From Oscillospiraceae bacterium (GTDB lineage: Bacteria > Bacillota > Clostridia > Oscillospirales > JAAYXM01): a stretch of 64,000 bases of DNA. The position numbers and the translations under genes were made by a program. Positions 16,034-47,442 of the stretch are shown here, piece after piece (the first letter of the stretch is position 1; each line of letters starts with the position of its first letter). The notes beneath the pieces were generated by a model. The model did not search any database and was not told where the DNA came from. It saw nothing but the letters and a program-made list of their open reading frames with translations. The stretch spans positions 2,974 to 66,973 of the forward strand of contig JAFSEA010000046.1 in the NCBI GenBank assembly GCA_017435965.1, given 5' to 3'.

Positions 16034-16064
16034 ATAAGTAAAAATTTCATCACGACTATTGAAA

Positions 16065-16109
16065 AGCAGTAGTGAACGACAATCAGTCGTTCACTACTGC
16101 TCATTTTTT
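16065..16109. terminator. Bidirectional rho-independent terminator
   Basis: Perfect 16-bp stem AGCAGTAGTGAACGAC / GTCGTTCACTACTGCT with a 5-nt loop, followed by a T-run on + and flanked by an A-run. Lies between convergent genes and overlaps the stop of the AraC gene. Confidence 0.75.
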
Positions 16110-17906: not shown

Positions 17907-18016
17907 AGAAAAATCTCCCATATAGAAATTTTTATATTTTTGCTTGAAATTATTATAACATATACACATTGAAATTGATATAATAAAATTGAAAATATAA
18001 AAAATGGAGAAGTGAA

Positions 18017-23636: not shown

Positions 23637-26600
23637 ATGAAAAGATTTATCTCAACATTGCTCGTTTTATGTATGGTCTGCAGTTTTGTGCCCACAATAG
23701 GTGCAGAACCGGCAGAAGCTTCAAAAAGCGGAATAAGCGTAGTTTATGACTGGGGAACGCAGATGAAAACAGAAACGGAAAACGATCCGGCTCCTCTCAA
23801 GGATGCTGCTTTCCTATCGCAGTTTACATTTGACAGTTCCCATAATTTATGGAAATATGACAGCCAACAGTCCTGGTCTACCGTAACATGGAGATACGGC
23901 AATTACGTTCAGTTCAACAGAAGCGGTGGCGGTCTCTGGATGGTTTTTGAAATTTATGTGCCGAAAACCGGTATGTATACACTTGAACAGAAGTATGCAA
24001 AATTCGGAGGAAGTCAGTCGGATATCAATGTATATATGATTCCGAAAGAAAACGGAGCCGCTTTCACAACAGCCGATATGAAAGATGCCAATAAAGTTCT
24101 CACCCTTGACTGCAAAGGCACAAGCGGCGGCATTGTCGGAGATATTGCAACGACAGATAAAGAACTTTCATCGGGTTATTACTATGTAGCTTATCTGCAG
24201 GTAAAAACTGCCGATGGCACAAATGTTGCACTCTTTGGTGACCTCACCCTTAACGGCGGTGAGGGTAAAGCCGTTACGGAAATAACATCCGTTTCTGCAC
24301 CGGCCGAAGTGAAGGTGGGAGCAACGGGAAGTGTGACAGCCGAGGTTTATTATAGTGATCTGACCTCCGGCAGCGCAACTGCCGGTGATGTTACATATGA
24401 AAGTGACAATACCGATGTTCTTGAAATCAACGAAGCAACAGGTGCATATACTGCCAAAGCTTCGGGCGTTGCAACCGTTACCGCAAAGTCGGGCATTCTC
24501 CAAAAGAGCATTGAAATAACTGTGGGTGATGTTGAAAGAAGCGGAATAAGCGCAGTTTATGACTGGGGAAAGCAGATGAATCCGGGATCGGACAATGGTT
24601 CTCTCAAGGACACTACCTTCTTGTCACAATTTACCTTTGACCGTTCACACAATTTGTGGAAATATGACAGTCAGCAGTCATGGGCAACGGTCACATGGCG
24701 ATACGGTGATTATGTTCAGTTCAACAGAGGCGGTGGCGGTCTCTGGATGGTCTTTGAAATATATGTACCCAAGAAAGGTGCATATACACTCCGGCAGAAA
24801 TATGCAAAGTTTGGCGGAAGTCAGTCGGATATCAATGTGTATATGATTCCGAAAGAAAACGGAGCCGCTTTCACAACAGCCGATATGAAAGATGCCAATA
24901 AAGTTCTCACCCTTGATTGTAAAGGCACAAGCGGCGGCATTACGGGAGATACTGAAACAACAGTCAAAGAGCTTCGGGAAGGCAATTATTATGTAGCCTA
25001 TCTGCAGGTGAAAACTGCCGATGGCACAAACGTTGCCCTCTTTGGGGATCTTACCCTCAACGGAGGTTCGGGAAAAGTTGCGACATCAATAAACTCCGTA
25101 TCCATACCGTCGGATGTGAGAATGGGAACTACGGGAACTGCAACAGCCGAGGTCTATTACAGCGACCTTACTTCGGGACCTGGAGACAATGTTACATTTG
25201 AGAGCAGCGCTCCCGATGTTCTTGAAATCAATGCAACAACAGGTGCATACACAGCAAAGGCAGGCGGCGTTGCCACCGTTACCGCAACTGTTGGCAACAT
25301 AAGCAAAAGCATTGAAGTAAAAGTAGGAAATGTTGAAAAAAGCGGAATAAGCGTTGTTTATAATTATTCGGCACAGATGCCCCTGAGAACGGGAAACGAC
25401 ACGGCGAGCGTTTCGGATATGGAAAAGTTCACCTTTGATTCCTCTCACGGACTCTGGGCTTATGCCGCATATTCCGGAAGCGATGTGCGTTTCAGAAACA
25501 AGAGCACCATTCAGCTCAATTCAAACAATTATTGGGTTGCAATGGAAGGCTATGTTCCCAAAAGCGGAGCATATAACATCGAGCAGAAATACAGTACATA
25601 TCCTGGAAGCGGAACTCTTGATGTGTATATAATTCCAAAGGGTGATAACACTTCATACAATGCATCGCTCATAAACGGTGTTTCGCCCACACTTTCACAG
25701 AACTGTGACGGTGAAAACGGAAACTTTGTTGCACTTTCTACACCTGCAATAAAGGAAAACGTATATCTTGATGCAGGATATTATTATATAGTTTATAAAT
25801 CAAACGGCGGAAGGGCAATATTCGGAAACCTCACCCTCAACGGCGGCGAAGGACGTGAGCTTGTTGATTTTGAAGTCGTAAAGCCCGATTTTATCGCCGA
25901 GGGAGAAGCGGGAGAAGTCTCTGTTGTTGCTTATTACAGCGATGCAACAAGCGAAAACTACGCAGGTGAAGTATCGTATGCAACGGAAGACGGAGACATT
26001 CTGAATATTGACGAAAACGGTGCATATGAGGCAATTTCTTCGGGAACTGCCGTTGTAACCGTAGAAGTCGGCGGACTTAAAAAGGATGTCACCTTTGATA
26101 TAAGAGGAAAGAGCGGAATAACTGTAATCTATGATTATGCAAAAGAGTTGCCGCTTTCAAGCTCAAGACAAACAACAGAGTTTGACCTTGGACTTTTCTC
26201 CTTTGAAAACTCAAAGGGACTCTGGGCATATGCAGGACATAACGGAGGCGATATACGCTTCAGAAACGGCAAAATATTCCAGCTTGCCGAAAAGAATTAT
26301 TGGTTTGTAATGGAAATATATGTTCCGAAGAGTGGTATGTATAATCTTGAGCAGGAATATACCACATATCCGGGCAGCGGAACATTGGATGTATATGTGC
26401 TTCCGAAGGGTGAAAATACTTCCTACAGCGACACACTTATAAAGGAAAAAGCCCCCACCTTCTCACAGAGCTGTGAGGGAGCTGACAAAGCATTCACAGC
26501 CCTTTCTGAACCGTCAATAAAGGAAAATGTGTATTTCGACAACGGATATTATTATATAGTTTATAAATCAAACGGCGGCAGAGCAATGTTCGGAAACCTC

Positions 26601-29600
26601 ACCCTCAATGGCGGTGGGGAGCGTGAGCTTGCCACAATTTCCTTTGACATTCCCGAAATTATGGTAAAGGGCGATGGCGGACTTATCGCACCCATAGGAA
26701 CAATGAGTGACGGTACTGCCTTCTCCGTAAAAGACGGATATATTTTCTCAAGCGATAACGAAGATGTGCTTTATGTAAACCGTGAAACGGGAGAATATAC
26801 TGCAAGTGGTGCAGGTGTTGCAACGGTTACCGTTTCTTATGATATCGGAAGAATGATAACCTCCGAGAAAAAGGTTGAGGTTATTGAAGGCGCGGCGGCA
26901 GGCAAGCTGTTTATCTATGATTTTGCAGAAGCAATCCCCGAATATGGAACAGATAAGGCATTTTCCGAGCTTTCAAGCGATGATGCGAGCGGTGCATATC
27001 AATTTGCATCGGCAAGTCAGAGTGGAGTGGGTACTCAGATTCAATACAGAGACACATTCATAAATCTTGGAAAAGGTGAATGGTTCGCCTTTGAAATTGA
27101 CATCCCCGTATCGGGAATATATTCGATAAATCAGAGATATGGCAAATACAACAACTCAACGGGTGCTCTTGAAGCATACATTATTCCGAAAAACGGAAAC
27201 TTTGATATCAGCACCATCAATAACCTTGATGCAACCGGCACACAGAGCTGTTTTGACGGTGATGCATCCGAATATTCGGAAAGTGCAACAGTTTCCGACT
27301 TCGGAGTAGATTTCTTCGAGGCTGGCAAATACTATGTTGTTTACAAGGCTAAATATGGTAGAGCAATGTTTGGAAATCTCATACTTGACGGAAGAAACAC
27401 ATTCAAGAAGCTCATTGTATCTGCTCCGAAGAGTATAGGCGTTGGTGAGCGTGTTGAAATAGGCATAGAGGCAAAGTCTCTTGATATGACAACAATCGAC
27501 ATAGAAACCCTCAATTTGAAGAGTCTTTCATCTGTTCAATTTGCCCTTACAACAGAAATCGGTGACAACAACGAATGTTTTGTCTATGGTGAAAATGAGG
27601 GTGCTTCCGAGATTACAATCACGGCAGATGACGGTGAATTCTCCGATTCAAAGACAGTTGAGATTAAAGTAATTGACTCAAGTGAAGTTCAAAATGTCGA
27701 AATTGATATTTCCGATTATATCTATGTGAGAGCTTCCGAAAACATCAAATTTATCGCTCATATGGGAAGCGGAAAGACTATAGAAATACCGGATGAGACC
27801 TATGAAATCATAGCATCGGAGCCTGAAGGTGCAGGTGTGGTTTCGGGAAATTCCATTACCGGAAATGCAGAAGGAAAGATAACTTTAAAGGCAAGTGCAG
27901 ATTTCAAGGGTGAAATGAGAACTGCCGAAAAGGAAATAGACATTCTTGAGGGAATGTCAAAGCAGGCTCCCACATACTACACCTATGAGATGCGCGAAAA
28001 CGTTAAAAAGAATACCGAAAAGTATTCCTGGGTACGAAGTGAAGTAAATGCGAAAAAAGCAGATGCCGACATCGCTTTAGAGAACCTTGACGCATATTAC
28101 GATATGATAATCGGTGAGGGAATTCCGAGATCAAGAAGTATGAAGACGAAAGGTCATCCCGAAATTGATAATTGTCCTTACTGCGGAGAATATTATCAAT
28201 TTGCGTGGAAATATGATTTTCTCAATCGTCCGTGGAAGGCTCAGTGCCCGGGTTGCAAACGTTTCTTCCCTTCAAATGATTTTGAAAGCTTTATGAAGCT
28301 GGGACTTGATGAACAGAAATATTACGATGTTGACAGAGCAAGACAAGCACATCACGAGATGCTTTTTCACAAGGGCGGAGAAGAATGTACCTGTGAGAAA
28401 CCCGAAACGCCCTATTCCGAAGAGTGGTATGAGTTCTACGGATATGGAAATGAGGAAGGATATCTCTACAACAAGCTTTATAAAGAAGTCGGAAGCGAAA
28501 ATTCAAGTGTGGAGCTCCTTCCCAGCGAAAAGGCCGAGCGCTGGTGCGTTGATGACGGCTTCGGATACTACACAGGAAGAGTTTTCAATACAGGCGTAAA
28601 GGAAATGTATTGCCCGATAGCATTATATAACTATTCTTTGTTACCGGGAATTTCAAACAGAATAAGCTCCCTCGGAATGGCTTATGTATACACGGGAGAG
28701 ACAAAATACGGCGTTGCGGCGGCAATACTTTTAGACCGACTGGCAGACGTTTACCCGAGCCATGATGCCGATTCCTTTGACACCGGTGCATTCCAGATAA
28801 CAGATGGAGGAACGGGAAAAGGAAAAATACAGGGTCTTATTCAGGATGCATATTTCGCAAAGGGCTTTGCTCTGCGTATCGATGAGGTGTTCCCCATCCT
28901 CAAGGATGAGGCCGCCTGCAATCAGGTTATTCAGTATCTGAGCCCGAAAGCAGATGCAATGGGTCTTGAAAATAAGAAGAAAACCGCAGAGGATATATGG
29001 AGAAACTGGGAAGAGAATATTCTTCTTGAGAATTTTGAGGCGGCAAAGCTTTATAAGGTCGGAGGTAACTTCGGCACATACCAGGCTGCCATTGCGGCAA
29101 CTGCGCTTGTTCTTGACAAGAAGCCCGAATCCGATGAGATGATGGATTGGTGCTTCAGAAGCGGTGGAGTTGTTTATCCCCAGAACAGCGAAACGGGAAC
29201 CTACTACAACACAGGTGGAAACATCAATGCCCAGATTGTTGATGAAGTTGACCGTGACGGTCTGGGAACAGAATCCTCCGCAAGCTACAACTGTATGTGG
29301 TGGGAAAAGCTTATAAATATTGCAGAAATGTCTGCAAAATACGGTGATCCGAAATATGATCTTTATCAGAATGTAAAGTTCCTCAAAATGCTGGAGGCAT
29401 TTTCCGATCTCGTAATGACAAACTCCCACACAGTTCATATCGGTGACTGTTCTTCGGGTATCGCATCAGCTACACTCCTCGGAAATGTAAAGCTTCTCTC
29501 CACGATATTCCCGTATGTAAAATACACACCTATGGCTGAAAAGATTGCAAAGTATATAGCATTATATTACAACTACAATCTTGACGGCTTCAGAGAAAGT

Positions 29601-32165
29601 GTTTTTGCGGAAAATCCGGAAGGTCTCGGCGAGGAGATTATGAGCTTTGTCGAAAATGAAGACGGATTCACGGAAAGCAAAATGCTTGCAGGATATGGCT
29701 TCTCGGTGCTTCGTGCAGGTAAGAATTATAAATCCGTGAGCGATTCAACCGAAAATAATAACCTCCGTGACTTCTGGATTTACTTTGGTGGTGCTCAGTC
29801 TCACAGACACCTTGATGCACTCAATCTCGGTATCGAGGCATATGGTCTCAACATAGCTCCCGACCTTGCATACCCCGTAGATGCCACAGTAAATGCAGAG
29901 CGTATGCAATGGACGAGCACAACCCTTTCTCATAACACCGTAACCGTTGACGGACAGCAGCAGAAGAACATCACTCTCCCCGGAAAACCGTTACATTTTG
30001 ATGATTCGGGCATGGTAAAGGTTCTTGATACATCTGTTCCGGAAGTATATGAGGCAACATCGGAATACAGACGAACGGTTGTTATGATTGAAGCGGACGA
30101 CGACATAAGCTATGGCGTTGACTTCTTCCGTGTCGTTGGCGGAAATGAGCATATCTACAGCTTCCACGCACTCAGCGGTGACGATGCCTCCGTTGTTGAC
30201 GGACTCACACTTGTTCCGCAGGTTGATGAGCCGCAGAGTGACTGGACAAGTGAAGACACAAGCTCCTATGCAGGTGCTGACATCAAATACGGTCCTGACC
30301 CGAATCCCATGAAAGACTACAACTACGTCACATATTATCCGAGAGGAACAACGTGGCTCCGCGATGTACGTCGCTCCGATGATGTTGTAAATGACTTTAC
30401 GGCTGATTTCAAGATAACAGACTATAACCGTGTGATAAAGGACAACAAGGATATTCACTTAAGCCTCACAATGGTAAACGATTTTGAGCTTTCTGAGGTT
30501 GCATTTGCAAAGGGTAAAGTTCCTGAAAGAGCAACCAACAAGAATATTCCTTCACACCTTGAGTATATGCTCGCAAAGCGTGAAGGAAAGAACCTCGACA
30601 GCTTGTTTACCGCAGTATATCAGCCGTATAAGAAGGAAGCATATATATCATCGGTTGAACAGATTGTCCCTGAGATAATCAGCGGAACAGAGAAAAACGG
30701 CGATATCGCAAAGGCTGTAAAGGTTACCCACACAAACGGCAGGGTTGATTATATCATCTATGCCACAAACGATGAAGTAACGTATCAGCTTGAAAACAAC
30801 GAAGCTCTGACATTCAGCGGTTTTGTGGGCGTATGGACATTAAATGCAAACCGTGAGATTACATATTCCTATGTCCTTGGCGGAGAAGGCGATGTAACAG
30901 GAAAGATTTCAGGCTTCACGGAAGGGCTCTCCACCAATAACTACATTGATATAACACCGGATAAGGCAGTTTCCCCTGAAAGTCTTGCAGGAAAGTATAT
31001 CTTTATTGAGCACGATGGAGTGGGAAATGCCGCATATGAAATACTTTCCGCAGAAAAGAAAGCAGATGGAGATATCCGTCTTGATATCGGAACAGTAACA
31101 ACAGTTCGCAAGTATATGGATGCAAAGGATTTCGACAAGGGTTATGAATATAACATTGCAAAGAAACAGAAGTTTGTGATTTCAATGCCTGTCATATCGG
31201 ATTCGGCTCCCGTATTTGAAACATATGACGGTGGCGTTGCCGGCGTAAATAGTATATACGAGAGAAAGTTTACGGCAACAAGCTCACTGTCGGGAACAGA
31301 AATTGAGTATATCGGAAGAACTCTCCCGAGAGGTGCCACCATTGATTCGGAAACGGGACTCTTCACATGGAAACCCGCTTCTTCGCAGGTTGGAGATAAC
31401 CACGTTGCCATAACTGCAAGAGATTCTGACGGACGTGAAACAACCATACATATCACCATAACGGTTTACGGTTCAACCTCCGGCGGAAGCATCGGCGGTG
31501 CAGGTAGCGGTGGAACAGGCACGACCACAATACCTCCGGCTGAAAAGGAAGAAGAAAAAGAACCTTCAACCGATGTGGAAAACGGCGGTTCCGACGTTCC
31601 GCAAACTCCGGATTCGGAAAATGTCCGCTTCATAGACCTCGCCTCCCACGCATGGGCCGAGGATGCAATCAACTCTCTTGCAGATGAAGGCATTATAAAG
31701 GGCACAAGCGAAAATACCTTCTCTCCCGGAAACAACATAACAAGAGCAGACTTTGCAATTCTTCTTGTGCGTGCATTCAAGCTTTCTTCCGAAAACACAG
31801 AGAACTTCTCTGATGTCAAGGCTTCCGATTACTTTGCAAGTGAGCTTGCAATAGCACGAAATGAAGGACTTGTCGGCGGAATCGGTGATAATAAGTATGC
31901 ACCATACAACAACATCACCCGTCAGGATATGATGGTTATAGTTTACCGTGCACTTAAATCAATGGACAAACTTGTAGGGGTGGATATCATCCGCCCGGAA
32001 AACGAGGATTTTGAAGATGTAGCAGACTATGCAAAGGAAGCGGTTTCGGTCCTCATAGGTGCAGGTTTAGTCAACGGAAAGAACGGGAAAATCGCTCCCA
32101 CCGACTTCACAACCCGCGCAGAAGTTGCGGTACTTATCAAACGTATTCTCGAATATACCAAGTAA
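23637..32165 (+). CDS. Giant SLH-anchored heparinase II/III-type surface protein, paralog C (2842 aa)
   Basis: RBS GGAGGAG; signal peptide MKRFISTLLVLCMVCSFVPTIGA. Five unassigned modules alternate with Ig-like domains. Core carries CPYC...CPGC, HRHLDALNLG, PDLAYP and SHNTVTVDGQQQ. Ends with a He_PIG-like domain, a Gly-rich linker and three SLH repeats. Confidence 0.9.
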   Translation: MKRFISTLLVLCMVCSFVPTIGAEPAEASKSGISVVYDWGTQMKTETENDPAPLKDAAFLSQFTFDSSHNLWKYDSQQSWSTVTWRYGNYVQFNRSGGGLWMVFEIYVPKTGMYTLEQKYAKFGGSQSDINVYMIPKENGAAFTTADMKDANKVLTLDCKGTSGGIVGDIATTDKELSSGYYYVAYLQVKTADGTNVALFGDLTLNGGEGKAVTEITSVSAPAEVKVGATGSVTAEVYYSDLTSGSATAGDVTYESDNTDVLEINEATGAYTAKASGVATVTAKSGILQKSIEITVGDVERSGISAVYDWGKQMNPGSDNGSLKDTTFLSQFTFDRSHNLWKYDSQQSWATVTWRYGDYVQFNRGGGGLWMVFEIYVPKKGAYTLRQKYAKFGGSQSDINVYMIPKENGAAFTTADMKDANKVLTLDCKGTSGGITGDTETTVKELREGNYYVAYLQVKTADGTNVALFGDLTLNGGSGKVATSINSVSIPSDVRMGTTGTATAEVYYSDLTSGPGDNVTFESSAPDVLEINATTGAYTAKAGGVATVTATVGNISKSIEVKVGNVEKSGISVVYNYSAQMPLRTGNDTASVSDMEKFTFDSSHGLWAYAAYSGSDVRFRNKSTIQLNSNNYWVAMEGYVPKSGAYNIEQKYSTYPGSGTLDVYIIPKGDNTSYNASLINGVSPTLSQNCDGENGNFVALSTPAIKENVYLDAGYYYIVYKSNGGRAIFGNLTLNGGEGRELVDFEVVKPDFIAEGEAGEVSVVAYYSDATSENYAGEVSYATEDGDILNIDENGAYEAISSGTAVVTVEVGGLKKDVTFDIRGKSGITVIYDYAKELPLSSSRQTTEFDLGLFSFENSKGLWAYAGHNGGDIRFRNGKIFQLAEKNYWFVMEIYVPKSGMYNLEQEYTTYPGSGTLDVYVLPKGENTSYSDTLIKEKAPTFSQSCEGADKAFTALSEPSIKENVYFDNGYYYIVYKSNGGRAMFGNLTLNGGGERELATISFDIPEIMVKGDGGLIAPIGTMSDGTAFSVKDGYIFSSDNEDVLYVNRETGEYTASGAGVATVTVSYDIGRMITSEKKVEVIEGAAAGKLFIYDFAEAIPEYGTDKAFSELSSDDASGAYQFASASQSGVGTQIQYRDTFINLGKGEWFAFEIDIPVSGIYSINQRYGKYNNSTGALEAYIIPKNGNFDISTINNLDATGTQSCFDGDASEYSESATVSDFGVDFFEAGKYYVVYKAKYGRAMFGNLILDGRNTFKKLIVSAPKSIGVGERVEIGIEAKSLDMTTIDIETLNLKSLSSVQFALTTEIGDNNECFVYGENEGASEITITADDGEFSDSKTVEIKVIDSSEVQNVEIDISDYIYVRASENIKFIAHMGSGKTIEIPDETYEIIASEPEGAGVVSGNSITGNAEGKITLKASADFKGEMRTAEKEIDILEGMSKQAPTYYTYEMRENVKKNTEKYSWVRSEVNAKKADADIALENLDAYYDMIIGEGIPRSRSMKTKGHPEIDNCPYCGEYYQFAWKYDFLNRPWKAQCPGCKRFFPSNDFESFMKLGLDEQKYYDVDRARQAHHEMLFHKGGEECTCEKPETPYSEEWYEFYGYGNEEGYLYNKLYKEVGSENSSVELLPSEKAERWCVDDGFGYYTGRVFNTGVKEMYCPIALYNYSLLPGISNRISSLGMAYVYTGETKYGVAAAILLDRLADVYPSHDADSFDTGAFQITDGGTGKGKIQGLIQDAYFAKGFALRIDEVFPILKDEAACNQVIQYLSPKADAMGLENKKKTAEDIWRNWEENILLENFEAAKLYKVGGNFGTYQAAIAATALVLDKKPESDEMMDWCFRSGGVVYPQNSETGTYYNTGGNINAQIVDEVDRDGLGTESSASYNCMWWEKLINIAEMSAKYGDPKYDLYQNVKFLKMLEAFSDLVMTNSHTVHIGDCSSGIASATLLGNVKLLSTIFPYVKYTPMAEKIAKYIALYYNYNLDGFRESVFAENPEGLGEEIMSFVENEDGFTESKMLAGYGFSVLRAGKNYKSVSDSTENNNLRDFWIYFGGAQSHRHLDALNLGIEAYGLNIAPDLAYPVDATVNAERMQWTSTTLSHNTVTVDGQQQKNITLPGKPLHFDDSGMVKVLDTSVPEVYEATSEYRRTVVMIEADDDISYGVDFFRVVGGNEHIYSFHALSGDDASVVDGLTLVPQVDEPQSDWTSEDTSSYAGADIKYGPDPNPMKDYNYVTYYPRGTTWLRDVRRSDDVVNDFTADFKITDYNRVIKDNKDIHLSLTMVNDFELSEVAFAKGKVPERATNKNIPSHLEYMLAKREGKNLDSLFTAVYQPYKKEAYISSVEQIVPEIISGTEKNGDIAKAVKVTHTNGRVDYIIYATNDEVTYQLENNEALTFSGFVGVWTLNANREITYSYVLGGEGDVTGKISGFTEGLSTNNYIDITPDKAVSPESLAGKYIFIEHDGVGNAAYEILSAEKKADGDIRLDIGTVTTVRKYMDAKDFDKGYEYNIAKKQKFVISMPVISDSAPVFETYDGGVAGVNSIYERKFTATSSLSGTEIEYIGRTLPRGATIDSETGLFTWKPASSQVGDNHVAITARDSDGRETTIHITITVYGSTSGGSIGGAGSGGTGTTTIPPAEKEEEKEPSTDVENGGSDVPQTPDSENVRFIDLASHAWAEDAINSLADEGIIKGTSENTFSPGNNITRADFAILLVRAFKLSSENTENFSDVKASDYFASELAIARNEGLVGGIGDNKYAPYNNITRQDMMVIVYRALKSMDKLVGVDIIRPENEDFEDVADYAKEAVSVLIGAGLVNGKNGKIAPTDFTTRAEVAVLIKRILEYTK
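23724..27393 (+). repeat. Tandem array of five (unassigned ~190-aa module + Ig-like domain) units, period ~770-815 nt
   Basis: Unit starts are marked by KSGI[ST]V[VI]Y at about 23724, 24538, 25338 and 26107, with a diverged fifth at about 26893. Each module ends with FGNLTLNGG, FGDLTLNGG or FGNLILDG. Confidence 0.85.
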
Positions 32166-32191
32166 AAAATACATCCTCAGGAGGAAAAAAT

Positions 32192-32983
32192 ATGCAAATC
32201 GGAGCACAGCTTTATACTGCATATAACCACACAACAACGCTTGAAGATTTTAGCAAAACATTAAAGAAAGTAGCTGATATCGGATATAAGACTGTTCAAG
32301 TTTCGGGAACTTGTCCTTTTGAGCCGGAGTGGTTGCGTGAAGAGCTTTTGAAAAACGAGCTTAAGTGTGTTCTTACACACGTTTCTCCCATGAGTCTTAT
32401 TGAGGGAAATCTTGAAAAGATAATTGCAGACCATGCAGTATTCGGATGCAAGAATATAGGTATCGGAAGCCTTCCTCCGGGTGGCTCTGATCCCATTGAA
32501 AGATATGAGCTGTTTCGTGAAAAATTTGTTCCGATAGCAAAAGAAATGCGTGATCTCGGAGCAAAGCTTCATTACCACAATCACGATCAGGAATTCCGGG
32601 GCTGTTTTGCAGAAAAAAGTGTGCTCGACCGTATTTTAGAGGATTTTCCGGAAGATTCCATTGATTTCACACTTGATCTCGGTTGGGCAGCATGGGCAGA
32701 TGTGGATGTTGTCTCACTCATAAAGAAGCTCAACGGAAGACTTTCGAGAATCCATTTAAAAGATTATCTCGATGAAATTCCTGAAGGTATTGACGAAAAA
32801 GAGGTATACCTCCGTCCGATATATGAGGGAAAGCTTGATTATGATGCATACATAAAAACTCTTTCTGAAGCTGGCTGCGAATATATGCTTGTTGAGCAGG
32901 ATAGTTGTTATAACGAAGATGAATTTGAATGCCTCAGAAGAAGCTTTGTGAATGTAACAAGTCGATTCCCCGAAGTTAAGTAA
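32192..32983 (+). CDS. Sugar phosphate isomerase/epimerase (xylose isomerase-like TIM barrel)
   Basis: RBS AGGAGG, 26 nt after the stop of protein C. Family-like motifs include HYHNHDQEF, DLGWA and RIHLKDY. No signal peptide. Confidence 0.8.
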   Translation: MQIGAQLYTAYNHTTTLEDFSKTLKKVADIGYKTVQVSGTCPFEPEWLREELLKNELKCVLTHVSPMSLIEGNLEKIIADHAVFGCKNIGIGSLPPGGSDPIERYELFREKFVPIAKEMRDLGAKLHYHNHDQEFRGCFAEKSVLDRILEDFPEDSIDFTLDLGWAAWADVDVVSLIKKLNGRLSRIHLKDYLDEIPEGIDEKEVYLRPIYEGKLDYDAYIKTLSEAGCEYMLVEQDSCYNEDEFECLRRSFVNVTSRFPEVK

Positions 32984-33004
32984 TCGTAAGAAGGAGAGAG
33001 TATC

Positions 33005-33901
33005 TTGAAAAAGATTGACCTTCATTGTCACACTTATGCACCACAGGAAAATTCTTCTCGGTGTCTCAAAGAAGATGCCGAGAGAATATCCCCGGAGGAG
33101 CAGATAGAAATTTTTGATAAACTCAATGTGGAAAAAGGCGTTATCCTTCCGCTTATTACGGCTAAACATCCGGATGGACTCGCGGCAGTTGAAAACTGCA
33201 GATATATTGCGGATAAATACCCCGATCGCTTTTCGTGGTTCTGCAATATTGACCCACGCGCAGAAGGCTTTGATGAAAAAACCGATCTCGGTGAATATTT
33301 CGGGCGCTATAAAGAACTTGGTGCAAAGGGAGTGGGAGAAATTACCACTCCTCTTTATGCGGACAGCCCTCTTATGGATAACCTTTTTCATCATTGTGCC
33401 CGGTGCGATATGCCGGCTCTTATACATATCGGAACAACACCCCAAGAAAATTATGGCATCGTAGATGAAAAGGGACTGCCACGGATAGAAAAGATGCTGA
33501 AAAAACATAAAAATCTTCGCATAATCGGTCACTCTGCGGCGTTCTGGTGTGAGATTTCCGAAAATGGTTATCCCGAAGACAGAAACGACTATCCCAAGGG
33601 AAAAGTATCCGATGGTCGCCTTGCTTTTCTTTTCCGTGAATATGAAAATCTCTACTGTGATTTGTCTGCAGGAAGCGGCTCAAACGCAATGATGCGTGAC
33701 CGTGAGTATGCCGCAAAATTCCTCACGGAATTTGCCGACAGGATTTATTACGGAACAGATATGACAGGAAAAAGTCAGAAGTTCCCATATGTGTTTGACG
33801 ACTTTCTCACATCACTTCTTACCGACAAGATGATAAGTGATGTGGTTTATGAAAAAATAGTTTATAAAAATGCCGCAAAACTTCTGGGTATCCAAGGATA
33901 A
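33005..33901 (+). CDS. Amidohydrolase-family metal-dependent hydrolase (TIM barrel)
   Basis: TTG start with RBS AGGAGAG. N-terminal metal motif IDLHCHT, with later IHIG, IIGHSA and YYGTD. About 300 aa, no signal peptide. Confidence 0.65.
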   Translation: MKKIDLHCHTYAPQENSSRCLKEDAERISPEEQIEIFDKLNVEKGVILPLITAKHPDGLAAVENCRYIADKYPDRFSWFCNIDPRAEGFDEKTDLGEYFGRYKELGAKGVGEITTPLYADSPLMDNLFHHCARCDMPALIHIGTTPQENYGIVDEKGLPRIEKMLKKHKNLRIIGHSAAFWCEISENGYPEDRNDYPKGKVSDGRLAFLFREYENLYCDLSAGSGSNAMMRDREYAAKFLTEFADRIYYGTDMTGKSQKFPYVFDDFLTSLLTDKMISDVVYEKIVYKNAAKLLGIQG

Positions 33902-33915
33902 GGAGAATTTTAAAT

Positions 33916-35847
33916 ATGAAAATTATGGTTTGCCACGTAGGCTTAAATGAAACGGTGGAGTTTGCATCGGAAGAGCTTCGCCGATACCTTTACAAGATAG
34001 ACAAAACCATCGAAGTTGAAATCACCTCGTATGATACATATAATCCAACACGAAATGATGCCATTTGGCTCATTGTCGATCCGGCACTTGCACCTGAAGT
34101 TTCGGATCCTTCAATGGATGATGCTTTTCGCATTACTATAAACAACAACACAGGTATGATTGCAGGAACAAATCCCATATCGGTTCTTATCGGTGTGTAC
34201 AGTCTTCTTAAGAAACTTGGATGCAAATGGATTCGCCCCGGTCGTGACGGAGAAGTTATTGAAGAGAAGATACTCTCTCCTCTCAATTTCAATTATGAAG
34301 AAAAGGCGGCTTACCGTTTCAGGGGCATTGACCCTGCCGTAGGCACATCTCTTCAGAGAAACATTGACCTGATTGACTGGCTTCCCAAAGAGGGAATGAA
34401 CAACCATTTCAAAGAAATGCTTTCTCCTGAAAAGGGATATAAAAAATACAAGGAATATGAAGACTTTACCGACGAGGATTGCATGGCTACCTTCAAAACA
34501 ATCGTCCGTGAGATGAAAAAGAGAGGAATCAAACGTCATGGAGTGGGTCACGGTTGGCATATGGAAGCAATCGGATTTCACGATCATTCAGATTGCTGGA
34601 AACTTTCTGATGATGACCTCACCGAAGAGCAACATTCAATGCTTGCTCTCCGTGACGGAAAGCGCAATCTGTATCTCGGTCGCAACCTTTTCGGCACACA
34701 GCTCTGCTATTCTCAGGATAAAATCCGTGATTCAATCGTAGGGCAGATTGTGGATTATCTCGGGGAGCATCCCGAGATTGATTATCTGCATTTCTGGCTT
34801 GCAGACGGTTGTAACAACCATTGCGAATGTGAGGAATGTCAGAAACACAGACCATCAGACTGGTATGTAATGATGCTTAACGACCTTGACAGACGTCTTA
34901 CGGAAGAAGGAATCAAGTCACGGGTTGTTTGCCTTATTTATGTTGACCTTTTGTGGGAGCCTGTTGAGTTTTCAATAAACAATCCCGACAGATTCATTCT
35001 TATGTTTGCGCCCATCACAAGAGAGTATGATACAAGCTATTCAGATTTTGATAAGCCTGCCGAGAAGATGCCTTATGTCCGCAATAAGCTTGTTTGGCCG
35101 GCTTCTGCAGCTGAAAATATCGCATATCTCCGTGATTGGCAGGAAAAGCAGATTAAAGGCGATTCATTCCTCTTTGATTATCATCTTATGTGGAATCAGT
35201 ATAAAGACCCAAGCTTCCGCAATGTTTCAAGAGTTGTTTATGAAGATATGTATAACCTCAAAAACCTTGGACTCGGCGGAAATATATCCTGCGAAGTATT
35301 CACAGGTCAGATTCCCAATGATTTCCCCAGAAGAATTATGGCAAGAACACTCTGGAACAGAGATGTTGACTATTACGAAGAAGAAAAACAGTGCTACGAG
35401 GAAACTTACGGATCGGGTGCAGACAAAGCAGCCGAATATCTTGCAAAGCTTGCAGATGTATTCTCTTTAATGTATCGCTATTATAAAGAACCCGAAAACA
35501 CACGTGAAGAACAGAAGGCATTTGCCGCAAATGTTGAAAAAATTGTAAATGACTTTAAGCCTGTAATCAAAAAGTACCTTGAGGCTGACCTTCCCCGTGC
35601 TCAGCACATTTCCTGGGAGCTTCTTGATGCACAGACGGAATATAACATTGAGCTTGCACGGGCATATTGCGCAAAATACATCGGTGAAGAGAAAACTGCG
35701 GATGAGCATCTTGAGAAGTTCAATAAAATCTGCGACGATATTGACGAAAAATATGGCTACTACTTCAATGCCAATCAGGCAAAGTATTCCATAAAACAAT
35801 TTTACAATGAGATAACAAGAGAGGGTCCCAGAGTTATTATTCAATAA
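33916..35847 (+). CDS. DUF4838-like putative glycoside-hydrolase-related protein, copy 1
   Basis: The N-terminus FASEELRRYLYKI resembles the GH20b/GH67N-like lead-in of DUF4838 proteins. Conserved block HFWLADGCNNHCECEECQKHRPSDWYVMMLNDLD. Paralog of 40088-42031. Family assignment is from memory. Confidence 0.55.
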   Translation: MKIMVCHVGLNETVEFASEELRRYLYKIDKTIEVEITSYDTYNPTRNDAIWLIVDPALAPEVSDPSMDDAFRITINNNTGMIAGTNPISVLIGVYSLLKKLGCKWIRPGRDGEVIEEKILSPLNFNYEEKAAYRFRGIDPAVGTSLQRNIDLIDWLPKEGMNNHFKEMLSPEKGYKKYKEYEDFTDEDCMATFKTIVREMKKRGIKRHGVGHGWHMEAIGFHDHSDCWKLSDDDLTEEQHSMLALRDGKRNLYLGRNLFGTQLCYSQDKIRDSIVGQIVDYLGEHPEIDYLHFWLADGCNNHCECEECQKHRPSDWYVMMLNDLDRRLTEEGIKSRVVCLIYVDLLWEPVEFSINNPDRFILMFAPITREYDTSYSDFDKPAEKMPYVRNKLVWPASAAENIAYLRDWQEKQIKGDSFLFDYHLMWNQYKDPSFRNVSRVVYEDMYNLKNLGLGGNISCEVFTGQIPNDFPRRIMARTLWNRDVDYYEEEKQCYEETYGSGADKAAEYLAKLADVFSLMYRYYKEPENTREEQKAFAANVEKIVNDFKPVIKKYLEADLPRAQHISWELLDAQTEYNIELARAYCAKYIGEEKTADEHLEKFNKICDDIDEKYGYYFNANQAKYSIKQFYNEITREGPRVIIQ

Positions 35848-35916
35848 TTAAACATAGTTGTTCGGGGAAAAGTTTGTAGTATTCACAAAACTGATTTCAT
35901 ACAAAAATGAGGATTG

Positions 35917-37707
35917 ATGATGAAGCTGAGATATAAAATATACAAAGAAAAAGTATACGGATGCTTTACCGGCAAAAGCGTAGGTGGTACATTGGGGATG
36001 CCGTTTGAAGGACAATTGGACGTAGACTCGGTTACATATTATGATCCTGTACCAACCGAAATGGTGCCTAACGACGACTTGGATTTGCAGGTGGTCAATC
36101 TTGAAACGCTTCTTCGCACAGGTTTTCCGGTTTCCCGTCATCATATCGGCGAAATCTGGTTGCACCATATGGAAGATAATGCCCCTGATGAATATAGTGT
36201 CGGCATAGCAAACCATAAGCTCGGCATCAGAGGACCGCTTTCGGGGCAGTATCGCAATAAGTTCCACAGCGGTATGGGTGCCGCGATTCGCAGTGAACTT
36301 TGGGCGTGTGTTGCTCCTGCGAATCCAAAACTTGCAGCACTTCTCGCAAGAGAAGATGCCTGCACTGATCACACAGGTGACGGCATATATACGGAAATGT
36401 TTCTCGCTGCTGTTGAAAGTCAGGCATTTATAGAGAACGATTTGGAAAAACTCATCCAAACGGGACTTGAGTTTGTGGACAAAGAAAGCAAGCTTTATAA
36501 AGTCTTTGGAGATGTTATTCGTTTGTATAAAGAAACGAAGGATGTCTATGCAGTAAAAGAGTATATATTGAGACAATATCCTTGTGATAACTGGACAGAT
36601 GTAACGATAAATGTTTCGTTTATTCTTTTGGCATTAATAGCTTCCGATGGCGACTTCGACAAAGCAATTTGCACAGCTACTTCATTGGGATATGATGCTG
36701 ATTGTACTGCCGCTACAGTCGGTGCAATTTTTGGAATTATGAAACCTGACAGTATTGACGAAAAGTGGACAAATCCGATAGGCGATGCTTTGGTTCTTTC
36801 GCCTTGCATTGTTAATATGCATAGCTTTGATACAATAAGTGAGTTTTGCGAAGTGGTAATGTCTGTTGCGAATTATGCACAAGAGTATTATCAAACAGGA
36901 ATACAGTTTGAAGGCGCTGACGGTTTTGCTGATATACGTCTTGCAGATAGCTGGACGGATGATTACAAAAGTCTTTATGATTGGAAAATCGGAGCAAAGG
37001 AATCCCTCCTGACGGGCTTGCCTTGCCTGATGAGCTTGGTCTATCCGGAAGAGGTTGCTGCCGAACCGGGTAAAAGTAAGGAATACACCTTGAAATTATG
37101 CGCAGATAAAGACATATCGGGTTCTGTTAAATTGTTTGTGCCGGAAAAGTGGCAGGTATCTTCGGAAACGTTCTCGTTCAATCTTTCAAAAGGTGAAACA
37201 AAAGAAATTTCGTTCTTTGTTAAACCTGATGCAGAACAAGGGTTGAGATGTCAGAAAAATATTTTAACGATGCGTTTTTGCATAAATGGTGTTACTTTTG
37301 TGCAAGAGGCAGGACTTCCTGTTTCAACTCCGTGGATGGTTACTGCTGCCGATGGCAGAGAGTACGTATATGAAGCAACGTCCATTTACTTCCCGGTTCC
37401 GTCGGGTGAGTACAGATATAAAACGCGCGTAAACTCACCGATACAAAAAAATGTTCGTATGGCATGCAACGGAACAAGACCGTTTATCGTTAAATTGAAT
37501 GGTGAAACAGTGTATGAAGGCGATGGTTCTTTCTATGTACCTGCATTTCATCGCGGAGATACCTGGACAAACGTTGTGTTGAATACCGGAGCATCAAATG
37601 AGATAGAAGTTGTTTTCCCTGAATATAAAGAGGGCGAGTTCTTCTTTGGTTTCGGAACAACCTTCGGATGTGCAACATGGTTAGATACGATTGAAAGAAC
37701 GCTCTGA
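35917..37707 (+). CDS. ADP-ribosylglycohydrolase (ARH) family protein with ~250-aa C-terminal extension
   Basis: ARH motifs are present: GCFTGKSVGGTLGMPFEG, NDDLDLQ and LGYDADCTAATVGAIFG. The extra C-terminal region after about aa 340 looks beta-rich. Start is ambiguous among TTG 35914, ATG 35917 and ATG 35920. Confidence 0.75.
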   Translation: MMKLRYKIYKEKVYGCFTGKSVGGTLGMPFEGQLDVDSVTYYDPVPTEMVPNDDLDLQVVNLETLLRTGFPVSRHHIGEIWLHHMEDNAPDEYSVGIANHKLGIRGPLSGQYRNKFHSGMGAAIRSELWACVAPANPKLAALLAREDACTDHTGDGIYTEMFLAAVESQAFIENDLEKLIQTGLEFVDKESKLYKVFGDVIRLYKETKDVYAVKEYILRQYPCDNWTDVTINVSFILLALIASDGDFDKAICTATSLGYDADCTAATVGAIFGIMKPDSIDEKWTNPIGDALVLSPCIVNMHSFDTISEFCEVVMSVANYAQEYYQTGIQFEGADGFADIRLADSWTDDYKSLYDWKIGAKESLLTGLPCLMSLVYPEEVAAEPGKSKEYTLKLCADKDISGSVKLFVPEKWQVSSETFSFNLSKGETKEISFFVKPDAEQGLRCQKNILTMRFCINGVTFVQEAGLPVSTPWMVTAADGREYVYEATSIYFPVPSGEYRYKTRVNSPIQKNVRMACNGTRPFIVKLNGETVYEGDGSFYVPAFHRGDTWTNVVLNTGASNEIEVVFPEYKEGEFFFGFGTTFGCATWLDTIERTL

Positions 37708-37779
37708 TAAAACAGATAATGAAAAGTTAAAATGCAATCCGACAGATGATTTTTACAAAACAAAATAAGGAGGAAAATC

Positions 37780-38673
37780 ATGGAAACAAGATGGTTACAT
37801 ACAACAAGTGAAGATTTTAAAAAGCTCCGTGAAGAATCGGAAAGAGTGTGCGTTATTCCTATGGGATGCCTTGAAAAACATTCCGTTTATCTTCCTCTGG
37901 GCACCGATGTTATCATAGCAAATAATATGGCATATGATGCATCTCAGCTTGAAACAGTATGTGTTTTCCCTGATTTCGCATTCGGTGATGTTCCCTGCGG
38001 TGACCATGCGGCTCGCCCTGACGGAACAATCGCCCTTGATGTTCGCATACAGATGCTTTTGCTGGAGAATCTTTGTGGCGAGATTTCCGCAAACGGCTTT
38101 AATAAAATTCTCGTTGTAAATGGTCACGGCGGAAACCTTCCGTGGCTCCAGACCTTTGCAAGAAATCTCGGTTGCAAGCCTCATAAATATGTTTTTGCAT
38201 ATGTGGATGTTCCCGATACAGTTCCGCATCAGATGGCAGAGTTCCTCCTTGAAAAAGGAAGCGGTTCTATTCCGGAGCTTACGGCGGAGGATGAAGAGCT
38301 TATAATCAAATACTACAAGGCTGATATGCAGCTTGGCCACGCCTGCATGCAGGAGGCGGCATACACTATGGAATATGCCCCCGAAAGCGTACATCTTGAC
38401 CGCCTTGGAAGAGAAGACGGCTCTCCGAGAGACCTACCCGAGCTTCAGAAGCTTCTTGACCTTAAAGTGCGCCTTTCCATGGGCGGTTGGGATCATTTAT
38501 ACCCCGACTGGTATGCAGGGGATGACCCATATGGACTCAATGAGCGTATAGCACGCGCCGCAACAAGAATTGCCACGGAAAAGCTTGCAGAGGTCTATAA
38601 GGCATTTAAGGAAGATAAGTTCCTTCTCGGACGTGCAAAAGAAAACTACAAGGACAAAACTTGGTTTGAATAA
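37780..38673 (+). CDS. Creatininase-family amidohydrolase
   Basis: RBS AAGGAGG. Family signature IPMGCLEKHSVYLPLGTDVIIA ... DGTIAL ... ILVVNGHGGN. Confidence 0.8.
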   Translation: METRWLHTTSEDFKKLREESERVCVIPMGCLEKHSVYLPLGTDVIIANNMAYDASQLETVCVFPDFAFGDVPCGDHAARPDGTIALDVRIQMLLLENLCGEISANGFNKILVVNGHGGNLPWLQTFARNLGCKPHKYVFAYVDVPDTVPHQMAEFLLEKGSGSIPELTAEDEELIIKYYKADMQLGHACMQEAAYTMEYAPESVHLDRLGREDGSPRDLPELQKLLDLKVRLSMGGWDHLYPDWYAGDDPYGLNERIARAATRIATEKLAEVYKAFKEDKFLLGRAKENYKDKTWFE

Positions 38674-38697
38674 GGAAACACAAAGGGAGAATTTTCT

Positions 38698-40032
38698 ATG
38701 AAAACAGGTTTTTCAAAAGTTTGCATCAATCCGCCTTACGGTGCGCCGATGGTGGGTTATTATGAAGCTCGTTTTGTTAAGGGAATTGAGCAGAATCTTT
38801 ATGCAAGGGCTGTTGCGTTTGATGACGGATGCAAAAAGGCTGTTGTTATTGCCGTTGATGTTATCGGCCTTACCTTGGATTTCTGCAATATGGCAAAAGA
38901 TGCTATTGCCGCTTCAACGGGAATTGAGAAAGATGCAATTTTTATAAACTTCTCACATACACACACAGGCCCTCTTGTGGGAGAAGACTTCGCCTCGGAA
39001 ACAAAAAGCTCCGATGCCTATAATGATTTTCTCATCACAGGTATCCGTGATGCGGCAATATATGCACTTGACGATCTTTGTGAGTCGAGATTTGAGGTAG
39101 GGGATGCCGAGGCAAAGAACATCTCATTTATCCGCCGTTACAGAATGAAAGACGGCGGAGTTGTGACAAACCCCGGTGCTTATAACGAGAATATTGACCA
39201 TCCGCTGGGGACTCCCGATGAAACCGTGAAGCTCGTTAAAATAGTGAGAGACGGTAGCGACGATATATTCATAATCAATTTCGGAACACACGCCGATGCG
39301 GTAGGCGGAGAATATATAAACTCGGATTATATGGGATATGCGTGTTCCACCCTTGAAAAGGCAATCCCCGGAATAAATTGCATTTTCCTTCTCGGTCCTC
39401 AGGGAGATGTCAATCACATCAACATCAACCCAACAAAAGGCGAATGGAATATTCTCGAGGATAAAGAAGCCGTGTGTCCACATAGTGTGCGACACTCTCA
39501 GCATATGGGAAGAGTTATTGCAGGTGCAGTCCTTTCGGTATGCTCCGTTACGGAGGAGATAAACGCCGATAGGATTTCGTATGGTGTTAAAGAAGTACAG
39601 CTTCCCTCATACCGGGAAAATGACAAGCTTGATGAAGCAAGAAGAATCTGGACACTCCACGAAAGCGGAAAAGATGACGAGCTTCCATACAAAGGAATGG
39701 AGCTCACAACGGTTATTGCGGAAGCAAAGCGAATTGTCGGGCTTGAAAACGGTCCGGAATCTTTCCCGTTCCTTATTTCGGCGTTAAGAATAGGCGAGCT
39801 TGTTTTTGCCGGAATCGGCGGTGAGCCGTTTACGGAAATAGGTGTAAGGATATCGGATGCATCGCCCTTTAAAAACACAATAGTATGTTGCCTTACAAAC
39901 AATAGTGGAAGCTATATTCCAACAAAAAGCGCATACGATGAAGGTGGATATGAGGCAAGAGCCTCTGTTCTTATGCCCGGCGGTGATGATATCATCGTTG
40001 AAGGTGTGGTCGAGCTTTTAAAAACACTTTAG
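38698..40032 (+). CDS. Neutral/alkaline ceramidase-N-terminal-like hydrolase, copy 1
   Basis: The N-terminus KTGFSKVCINPPYGAPMVGYY...LYARAVAFDDG matches the ceramidase_alk-type lead motif. Paralog of 42047-43378. No signal peptide. Confidence 0.65.
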   Translation: MKTGFSKVCINPPYGAPMVGYYEARFVKGIEQNLYARAVAFDDGCKKAVVIAVDVIGLTLDFCNMAKDAIAASTGIEKDAIFINFSHTHTGPLVGEDFASETKSSDAYNDFLITGIRDAAIYALDDLCESRFEVGDAEAKNISFIRRYRMKDGGVVTNPGAYNENIDHPLGTPDETVKLVKIVRDGSDDIFIINFGTHADAVGGEYINSDYMGYACSTLEKAIPGINCIFLLGPQGDVNHININPTKGEWNILEDKEAVCPHSVRHSQHMGRVIAGAVLSVCSVTEEINADRISYGVKEVQLPSYRENDKLDEARRIWTLHESGKDDELPYKGMELTTVIAEAKRIVGLENGPESFPFLISALRIGELVFAGIGGEPFTEIGVRISDASPFKNTIVCCLTNNSGSYIPTKSAYDEGGYEARASVLMPGGDDIIVEGVVELLKTL

Positions 40033-40046
40033 TTATAAAACCGAAT

Positions 40047-40089
40047 AACAAACGCCTTGTGAATTGACACAAGGCGTTTGTTATTTTTT
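40047..40089. terminator. Bidirectional rho-independent terminator between convergent operons
   Basis: Perfect 15-bp stem AACAAACGCCTTGTG / CACAAGGCGTTTGTT with a 6-nt loop, followed by ATTTTTT. Overlaps the stop of the minus-strand gene. Confidence 0.85.
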
Positions 40090-44177: not shown

Positions 44178-44347
44178 AGTCATCATCTCCGTATATAAAG
44201 GTAACACAAAAATACAAACAAAGTCAATGTATAATACGGATTTGCCGGGAATTATATTTCCGTTTTATACAAAAGTGCAATTTCGCACATTGAAATTCAT
44301 TATAAGTAAGTATAGACTTGTAATTAAGTGAGGAGTATTTCGCAAAA

Positions 44348-46612: not shown

Positions 46613-46621
46613 GAGATATAT

Positions 46622-47410: not shown

Positions 47411-47442
47411 CAAGTATTGTATCGATATAAGCAATTAAACAT

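Follow-up and report, generated by a model that had tools for sequence, protein, structure and literature searches.

An operon-like block behind a surface lyase-fold protein in a gut Oscillospiraceae bacterium, probably a polysaccharide-utilisation cluster of modular content

The 64,000-nucleotide stretch analysed here (the window, to whose first letter all positions refer) comes from contig JAFSEA010000046.1 of an Oscillospiraceae genome assembly, and the block under study occupies positions 23637 to 40032 of its + strand. Seven open reading frames (ORFs) follow one another on this strand: the gene of a giant surface protein, C (23637-32165), and those of a xylose-isomerase-like TIM barrel (XylTIM, 32192-32983), an Amidohydro_2 protein (33005-33901), a DUF4838-like putative glycoside hydrolase (DUF4838a, 33916-35847), an ADP-ribosylglycohydrolase-like (ARH-like) protein (35917-37707, with an alternative start at 35914), a creatininase-fold metallohydrolase (Creat, 37780-38673) and a neutral-ceramidase-like protein (CerA, 38698-40032). 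The seven proteins are present in NCBI as MBQ7119357.1 to MBQ7119363.1, from an Oscillospiraceae metagenome-assembled genome (MAG), and for the DNA of the window 100% matches to metagenome contigs were found as well.

The successive gaps between the seven ORFs measure 26, 21, 14, 66-69 (for the two ARH-like starts), 72 and 24 nt, and a purine-rich ribosome-binding site precedes every gene. The gaps of 14 to 26 nt are too small to house a terminator, the intergenic gaps folded no better than shuffled sequence, and a + strand terminator scan from 32165 to 40032 gave no intergenic site and only weak intragenic matches. The only strong terminator of the block is found at its end, where a bidirectional intrinsic terminator with a 19-bp stem (40043-40085; -28.1 kcal/mol, z = -9.7) is shared with the convergent gene at 40088-42031; as U/A runs flank the hairpin on either side, it should also terminate the convergent minus-strand genes. 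With a single orientation, gaps of 14 to 72 nt, a ribosome-binding site each and a terminator at the end only, the genes from C to CerA look like an operon, and their layout suggests that they may be co-transcribed. The block is part of a longer co-oriented run of 11 genes that starts at 18017 and has four genes before C. The gaps in this part are of 15, 67, 81 and 72 nt and no strong terminator was found between 18017 and C, so that C need not be the first gene. An Rfam search of the cluster found neither a riboswitch nor a leader.

A first-pass annotation, made by a model from the letters and a list of ORFs, had described the same seven genes with the same spacing (69 nt before the ARH-like gene), no recognisable terminator before the end hairpin, and six products without signal peptides behind C, and in these respects it was borne out. 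No signal-peptide-like hydrophobic stretch was seen by eye in any of the six N-termini, and signal peptides were recognised in the same way in C, in the giant protein B, in a solute-binding protein and in an 872-aa protein encoded elsewhere in the window. Its family names were also correct, five of the six being given directly by Pfam and the DUF4838-like one through the similarity of DUF4838a to its paralogue DUF4838b. Its picture of an operon headed by a surface lyase stood as far as the SLH anchors of C and the fold obtained by profile search and modelling are concerned, but not as to the position of C, which is preceded by the genes from 18017 onwards.

Protein C (2842 aa) is composed of a signal peptide, CBM-like and Big_2 repeats that fill its N-terminal 1500 residues, a lyase module (approximately residues 1501-2520, nt 28137-31200), a He_PIG domain and three SLH anchors. 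The Pfam match of the module to Hepar_II_III_C is sub-threshold (22.7 bits for a cut-off of 24), that of the related proteins A and B reaching 38-40 bits, and single-sequence searches of the PDB with both halves of C gave no match. Residues 1501-2550 have 63 homologues; many of these stand alone, are about 1000 aa long and carry a heparinase II/III family annotation. When 32 of the module homologues were built into a profile, it matched polysaccharide lyases (PLs) in the PDB, namely PL17 alginate lyases (5e-23), the PL40 ulvan lyase Uly1040 (1e-22), PL39 and PL15. The module as modelled by AlphaFold2 (AF2; predicted local distance difference test, pLDDT, 83.7) shows an alpha/alpha-toroid followed by an anti-parallel beta-sandwich, and the best Foldseek matches of the model were PL17 (7bjt, 4nei) and PL40 (9vtk) structures, at E ~1e-21 and with TM scores on the target of 0.61-0.68. 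Further matches were to PL39, PL12, PL21, PL15 and PL33, those from PL39 to PL15 extending down to E 1e-12. The module family contains an invariant GHGHxD motif, which resembles the HxH metal/catalytic-base motif of the PL40 ulvan lyase Uly1040 (9VTK; PMC12915356); H556, H558 and H599 are invariant, D560 is nearly so, and Y and N residues are conserved. Together, profile and model support a PL17/PL40-type lyase fold for the C module. Although this fold is common to the module, PL17 (Alg17c 4NEI, 7BJT) and PL40 (Uly1040), the module differs from both in being about 1000 aa long, in carrying an additional Cys-rich segment at the N-terminus and in being embedded in a 2842-aa SLH protein, and it is 14-16% identical to their structures. 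It probably constitutes, as far as sequence comparison goes, a separate PL family or subfamily outside the classified ones. Two near-invariant Cys pairs (CxxC ... CPxC), which are possible metal sites, open the sequences of this family.

DUF4838a (643 aa), predicted to be cytoplasmic, appears to be a TIM barrel related to the glycoside hydrolase (GH) families GH163 and GH185. It shares 31% identity (E 3e-91) with the 647-aa minus-strand protein DUF4838b, which itself matches PF16126 (33.5 bits for a cut-off of 26.6). Orthologues of DUF4838a carry precomputed PF16126 matches, and NCBI names it a DUF4838 domain protein; a single-sequence search of the PDB with DUF4838a gave no match. The DUF4838 proteins correspond to families GH163 and GH185, the cytoplasmic members of which are 6-sulfo-beta-GlcNAcases that act on small oligosaccharides by a GH20-like substrate-assisted mechanism and have a fold closest to that of GH115; D309 and Y436 are the catalytic residues of Sp_0475 (PMC10570127). 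In their size of about 640 aa and missing signal peptide both paralogues of the window match GH185 Sp_0475 and GH163 BT1035, but the similarity is weak. The window paralogues have a conserved NNHCECxEC motif. This motif is a possible metal site; neither "zinc" nor "cysteine" occurs in the wording of the GH185 paper (PMC10570127).

The 444-aa CerA matches Ceramidase_alk (PF04734) with 34.8 bits for a cut-off of 32.1. The single-sequence PDB search gave chance-level matches only; the profile of its family matched human neutral ceramidase (4WGK) at 8e-14, aligning SHTHTGP, HPD and GEPFT...Y with the HxH, His and Glu/Tyr regions, and residues H87, H89, H198, E376 and Y406/Y418 are invariant in the family. 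The AF2 model (pLDDT 78) gave a Foldseek E of 7e-23 with TM scores of 0.67 on the query (TMq) and 0.46 on the target, and neutral ceramidases were its only convincing PDB matches, the others having a TMq < 0.2. CerA thus has the catalytic domain of the neutral ceramidases, with the fold and the HxH/His/Glu/Tyr regions of the human (4WGK) and Pseudomonas (2ZWS) enzymes, but it shares only 15-16% identity with them and lacks the C-terminal Ig-like domain, and with neither a signal peptide nor a membrane anchor it shows no sign of their extracytoplasmic location. On the basis of profile and model, CerA is a credible Zn-amidase candidate. Ceramide is unlikely to be its substrate, because the CerA family sits in sugar-related or housekeeping contexts in Oscillospiraceae.

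A second pair of these two genes, identified by Pfam and paralogous to the first, faces the block on the minus strand and comprises cerB (42047-43378), the product of which is 36% identical to CerA, and the gene of DUF4838b (40088-42031). Directly upstream of the pair and on the same strand is the gene of an AraC-family regulator (43392-44207; Pfam HTH_18 and HTH_AraC). The DUF4838-Cer association was found four times in all, twice in the window, as old paralogues, and once in each of two loci of other genomes (L088 and L176, see below). Of all observations, the existence of this second pair and its separate AraC regulator hints most strongly that the two folds cooperate. No literature was found on either PF04734 or PF03747 in glycan catabolism.

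PF03747 is the family of the ARH-like protein (115.4 bits for a cut-off of 26.2, 5e-33), which consists of an ADP_ribosyl_GH domain (residues 16-276) and a C-terminal region of about 300 aa. The motifs PNDDLD and GYDADCT are invariant in 20 ARH-like sequences down to 43% identity, and we take them to be of the kind of acidic motifs that bind two metal ions in ARH enzymes. The Pfam match and the acidic motifs are common to DraG, ARH1 and ARH3, whereas the extra C-terminal region is found only in the ARH-like protein; in the PDB sequence search only a short stretch of the ARH-like protein 8XKS was significant. The family comprises 999 proteins at E <= 1e-10 and occurs in two forms, of about 600 aa in Clostridia and of about 480-500 aa in Lentisphaerae, Planctomycetota, Kiritimatiellae and Actinobacteria, the catalytic domain being 42-51% identical across the phyla that carry the long and the short form. 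The neighbourhoods of ARH-like genes are carbohydrate-related, and no ADP-ribosyltransferase family is among the 25 neighbour families listed for these loci. In one preprint, ARH genes are mentioned for loci of Bacteroides that serve ribose utilisation.

The three remaining proteins were assigned to broad families. The Amidohydro_2 protein (PF04909, 2e-10; N-terminus MKKIDLHCHT) is of the metal hydrolase/decarboxylase/lactonase type and has no NCBIfam match. A close relation to a characterised amide hydrolase was looked for and not found, its sole solved relatives in the PDB being LigW/5-carboxyvanillate decarboxylases with a weak match (E 0.006). XylTIM (AP_endonuc_2, Pfam 5e-13), also predicted to be cytoplasmic, has a partial IolE-like NCBIfam match (51 for a cut-off of 290) and is a candidate keto-sugar isomerase, epimerase or eliminase. 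The creatininase-fold protein (Pfam Creatininase 3e-33, 115.6 bits) scores below all NCBIfam equivalogs of this fold, that is creatininase (59.9/235), MftE (63.9/172), IolN (32.5/245) and ArfB (27.7/180); the fold is not restricted to amide hydrolases and also includes the C-C hydrolase IolN. None of the six proteins reaches an NCBIfam equivalog cut-off, and their functions therefore appear undescribed. A scan of most window ORFs of >= 180 aa gave no Pfam match to the uronate-route families GH88/GH105, KduI/DhuI, KduD/DhuD, KdgK or KdgA. The six-enzyme set is fairly described as comprising a single good amidase candidate, a member of a glycosidase family and four metal-enzyme folds of broad assignment.

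Loci of other organisms (numbered with L) were compared around ARH-like and Cer-like genes, and among the 80 ARH-anchored and about 85 Cer-anchored loci core partner genes were present in only two, L088 and L176. The sister locus L088 has the order C (72%), a solute-binding protein, XylTIM (91%), DUF4838 (81%), Creat (85%), Cer (78%) and an MFS gene. It lacks the Amidohydro_2 and ARH-like genes, the DNA alignment being collinear and broken exactly at these two. L176 has a solute-binding protein, DUF4838 (85%), Cer (76%) and an S9 esterase, without XylTIM and Creat, so that four of the six downstream genes are kept in L088 and two in L176. In MAGs whose proteins belong to the same 90% clusters, consecutive accessions run through an SLH protein, XylTIM, DUF4838, Creat and Cer (MBQ6845607-11, locus-tag prefix IJO61; MBE6912270-72, prefix E7473). 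This order, read from accession numbering, implies that even very close relatives are devoid of the Amidohydro_2 and ARH-like genes. Horizontal acquisition of these two genes was considered, but their GC content and third-position GC content (GC3) are not distinct from those of the neighbouring genes and thus give no compositional sign of recent transfer.

The Cer-like family is highly conserved, the best 120 of 1861 matches being about 62-78% identical over their full length. About 80 Cer-anchored metagenome loci contained none of the partner genes, and other Cer-like loci have different sugar-related neighbours. A constant partner of the Cer-like gene was searched for and rejected, as 51 neighbours fell into 60 families with no more than three sharing any one of them. 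Apparent lyase matches near Cer or ARH homologues (L005, L090, L098 and human-gut loci) were also discarded, because they are matches to SLH domains only.

For the ARH-like gene, an alignment of 20 sequences gave at least 596 relatives (genome loci) in GTDB species representatives, mostly from glycan-degrading lineages, and the best 80 of these loci were compared by tblastn with all window proteins over 10-kb flanks. They span Clostridia, Lentisphaerae, Planctomycetota, Kiritimatiellae, Verrucomicrobiota, Armatimonadota and Actinobacteria, and these best 80 contained no lyase module, no Cer, no significant DUF4838 match, one Amidohydro_2 and one XylTIM. Among the matches listed, the genomes with the most similar ARH-like genes are MAGs from ruminants and other animal guts, and the nearest relative (74%) stands by itself next to a divergent AraC regulator gene; AraC regulators flank the homologues in many loci. 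The one Amidohydro_2 homologue (41%) was found in a Planctomycetales MAG (L056:9084-11464), directly upstream of a short-form ARH-like gene (45%). This adjacency may be due to chance, since it was seen in only one of the 80 loci. A constant partner was rejected here too, with 92 same-strand neighbours in 97 Pfam families, led by HAD (4), AP_endonuc_2 (3) and GH20 (2). In L087, the ARH homologue is accompanied by genes for a GH20 protein, a polysaccharide deacetylase and a SASA esterase. Several Oscillospiraceae/Clostridia loci (L084, L087, L088 and L090) have a creatininase-family gene no more than 10 kb from an ARH-like or Cer-like gene, and metallo-beta-lactamase-fold genes adjoin ARH in L004 and L087 and Cer in L089; in the sugar loci of these genomes, metallohydrolases could form a loose guild. 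The neighbours of both families are mostly carbohydrate-active or sugar-metabolic, yet highly variable.

The comparison from the side of the lyase gave a similar result. At three loci whose lyase modules are 33-38% identical, all six downstream genes are missing, and one of these loci, L171, carries GH78, UxaC, UxuA and a GNAT_C gene in their place. Across genomes, the six genes as a set were not found to co-occur with lyases or with each other.

On balance, we regard it as fairly probable that the block is a lineage-specific, Gram-positive-type polysaccharide-utilisation cluster of modular content in an uncultured Oscillospiraceae bacterium of the ruminant or animal gut, for which we infer the substrates and reactions. 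The genes downstream of C appear, from their distribution, to behave as a modular cluster rather than as a fixed linear pathway, because the gene content is layered into a recurrent DUF4838-Cer pair, a lyase, XylTIM and Creat retained in the nearest relatives, and strain-level additions. Gram-positive polysaccharide-utilisation loci, as they occur in Paenibacillus and Clostridia, comprise SLH-anchored multimodular enzymes, a solute-binding protein, AraC regulators and cytoplasmic finishing enzymes. The cluster shares with them a depolymerase with SLH, CBM and Ig-like repeats, a solute-binding protein, AraC regulators, signal-less enzymes and a strain-variable content, but differs by the lack of recognisable GH88/GH105, KduI/KduD and KdgK/KdgA enzymes and of permease genes in the window, and by ARH-like, ceramidase-like and creatininase-fold families without a characterised role in glycan catabolism. 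It is therefore a known kind of system with an unusual enzyme complement and a lyase family distant from PL17/PL40.

According to this model, C and its paralogues A and B would cleave a uronate-containing polysaccharide at the cell surface, and the oligosaccharides would be imported, probably through a transporter that depends on a solute-binding protein. The DUF4838-like glycosidase, with its GH20/GH115-like barrel, and the Zn-amidase would form a stable unit that releases and N-deacylates an amino-sugar residue, an N-acylated amino sugar being most plausibly what the unit acts on. XylTIM and the creatininase-fold enzyme, which travel with the lyase in the nearest relatives, may process a uronate-derived keto sugar, and the Amidohydro_2 and ARH-like proteins could be strain-specific add-ons that let the cluster deal with more kinds of side groups or linkages. 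The units are probably under the control of AraC-type regulators.

Several observations weigh against this model. Besides the single solute-binding protein, no ABC permease or other importer genes were found in the window. DUF4838a has no Pfam match at E <= 0.01. The proposed amino-sugar deacylation is drawn from fold and pairing alone. Promoter-like hexamers lie inside the 69- and 72-nt gaps that flank the ARH-like gene, so internal promoters are possible. Relatives of CerA with 67-69% identity stand alone among mutS/mutL/miaB or phoH/ybeY genes, and because of these housekeeping neighbourhoods CerA may serve a general cellular role, its position at the end of the operon being fortuitous.

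The last two points are also what an incidental adjacency would predict, in which C, a DUF4838/XylTIM/Creat unit, a mobile ARH-like gene and a housekeeping CerA are merely co-oriented and have no functional link to the lyase. The extreme variability of the ARH and Cer neighbourhoods and the closest listed ARH relative, monocistronic beside an AraC regulator of its own, agree with such an explanation. We nevertheless consider it unlikely in view of L088, which keeps the order XylTIM-DUF4838-Creat-Cer behind a C orthologue, of the fourfold DUF4838-Cer association with its old paralogous pair, and of the structure of the block itself, with gaps of 14 to 26 nt that leave no room for a terminator, gaps that fold like shuffled sequence and a single strong terminator that closes it. 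The opposite explanation had been put forward by the first-pass annotation, namely that the six enzymes constitute one dedicated, undescribed pathway for a lyase product decorated with N-acyl, lactam or ribofuranosyl groups, and that C-N bonds would be cleaved by three or four of the six. Their tight co-orientation behind the lyase, the lack of a known equivalog among them, the intact-looking Zn-amidase site of CerA, the invariant metal-binding-type acidic motifs of the ARH-like protein and the adjacency of Amidohydro_2 and ARH homologues once in a distant phylum (L056) are consistent with this proposal, and its statement that none belongs to the textbook uronate route agrees with the scanned window ORFs. 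The comparative data, however, make a coherent pathway of six steps improbable and take away the most exciting part of the claim, leaving a smaller conserved core. The annotation had itself named, as results that would speak against it, a gene set not conserved beside homologous lyases and a housekeeping role of each gene elsewhere. The former is what was found, at the three lyase loci without any of the six, in the sister genomes without Amidohydro_2 and ARH (L176 also being without XylTIM and Creat), in the best 80 ARH-anchored loci without lyase, Cer or significant DUF4838 and in the Cer-anchored metagenome loci without partners; to the latter, the solitary CerA relatives and the lone 74% ARH relative contribute, and taken together the results correspond largely to those named. 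Besides this lack of conservation, the pathway is unlikely because its amide argument leans on family names. Of the "amide-hydrolase-rich" mix, CerA remains as an amidase candidate, but DUF4838 proteins are glycosidases by family, the Amidohydro_2 protein has decarboxylases as its nearest solved structures, and the creatininase-fold enzyme matches no characterised subfamily.

As to the substrate, the target might be a microbial envelope polymer of uronic acids and N-acylated amino sugars (teichuronic-acid-like or capsular), with the amidase, esterase, GNAT-like and creatininase-fold enzymes serving to remove its acyl or peptide substituents. This sub-hypothesis, which is compatible with a modular utilisation cluster, would fit the lyase fold, typical of uronate polymers, the pairing of a GH20-related glycosidase with a Zn-amidase, the esterase and GNAT_C genes within the run, the neighbouring ROK sugar kinase and SIS isomerase (see below), and the GH20, deacetylase and SASA esterase genes of L087. 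This support is purely circumstantial, and GH78, UxaC and UxuA at the lyase locus L171 point instead to plant or algal glycans of the rhamnose/glucuronate type; we give the envelope polymer little credence.

A more specific form of the modular-cluster reading is tentative and rather doubtful, namely that the DUF4838/Cer pair is a two-enzyme module for N-acylated amino sugars and the roughly 600-aa ARH-like protein the member of a metal-dependent glycoside-cleaving family whose targets would be glycans instead of ADP-ribosylated proteins, both of them new. If it were true, two or three founding members of new carbohydrate-active families would serve a new PL17/PL40-related lyase family. Should the modular-cluster model itself be right, the locus would be a place to assign first functions to the ARH-like, truncated ceramidase-like (>1800 proteins), cytoplasmic DUF4838 and lyase families, which are common in gut and environmental glycan degraders. 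Its value lies in the candidates that it supplies for the discovery of enzymes in uncultured Oscillospiraceae; it opens no long-standing question and offers no coherent new pathway.

The four genes that precede C in the run and the regulator divergent from them were identified mainly by Pfam. The AraC-family regulator (17010-17969, minus strand; HTH_18, HTH_AraC, AraC_binding and Cupin_2) is a candidate regulator of the cluster, and a promoter-like site at 17955-17984 points toward the gene at 18017. This first gene of the run (18017-19279, +) encodes a GFO/IDH/MocA sugar dehydrogenase-like protein, whose NCBIfam matches to IolG, UDP-GlcNAc 3-dehydrogenase and glycoside/disaccharide 3-dehydrogenase are weak and far under the cut-offs. 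It is followed by genes for a GNAT_C/NAT_N acyltransferase-like protein (19295-20161, +; PF18164, 2.7e-37), the secreted 872-aa protein (20229-22847, +) and an alpha/beta-hydrolase esterase without signal peptide (22929-23564, +; S9/PHB-depolymerase-like by Pfam and NCBIfam). The 872-aa protein is paralogous to the repeat modules at the N-terminus of C, with 59-75% identity to residues 1-1065 and a nearly identical signal peptide. It has neither an SLH anchor nor a lyase module, and could either act as a free glycan-binding protein or represent a fragment that arose by duplication.

The dehydrogenase-like protein, XylTIM and the creatininase-fold enzyme recall two known systems. Oxidative cleavage of glycosides was reportedly described in 2024 with a GFO dehydrogenase and a xylose-isomerase-like eliminase; for GFO and XylTIM this may be taken as a lead, to which only the weak glycoside 3-dehydrogenase matches point. 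The Thermotoga-type inositol pathway uses IolG (GFO/IDH/MocA), IolN (creatininase-fold C-C hydrolase) and IolO (AP_endonuc_2 epimerase), and genes for the same three folds belong here to a single co-oriented run (18017 for GFO, 32192 for XylTIM, 37780 for Creat). The window proteins nevertheless score far under the equivalogs (32.5/245 for IolN, 81.5/355 for IolG and 51/290 for IolE), kinase and aldolase partners are lacking, and the genes are 13 kb apart.

Further upstream, within 137-16101, lie the genes of the giant SLH proteins A (2100 aa) and B (2628 aa), the paralogues of C with the stronger Hepar_II_III_C matches, followed by that of the lone solute-binding protein and a terminator with a 16-bp stem (16065-16101). 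On the far side of the window, a T-box leader was detected at 54725-54957 on the + strand, upstream of trpB (54998-56251), with 93 bits, which is exactly the Rfam gathering score. It was found only by a permissive search of the short region, the gathering search of the whole window having missed it, and no separate T-box for the divergent tyrS (53327-54598) is present in the interval. Between the second Cer-DUF4838 pair and this leader, the + strand at 44348-49002 encodes a glycyl-radical enzyme, its activase, the ROK sugar kinase and a GmhA-like SIS isomerase. The glycyl-radical enzyme is of the dehydratase/PFL2-3 type and scores under every NCBIfam equivalog cut-off, and the set has the appearance of an anaerobic sugar or diol-type pathway adjoining the glycan cluster.

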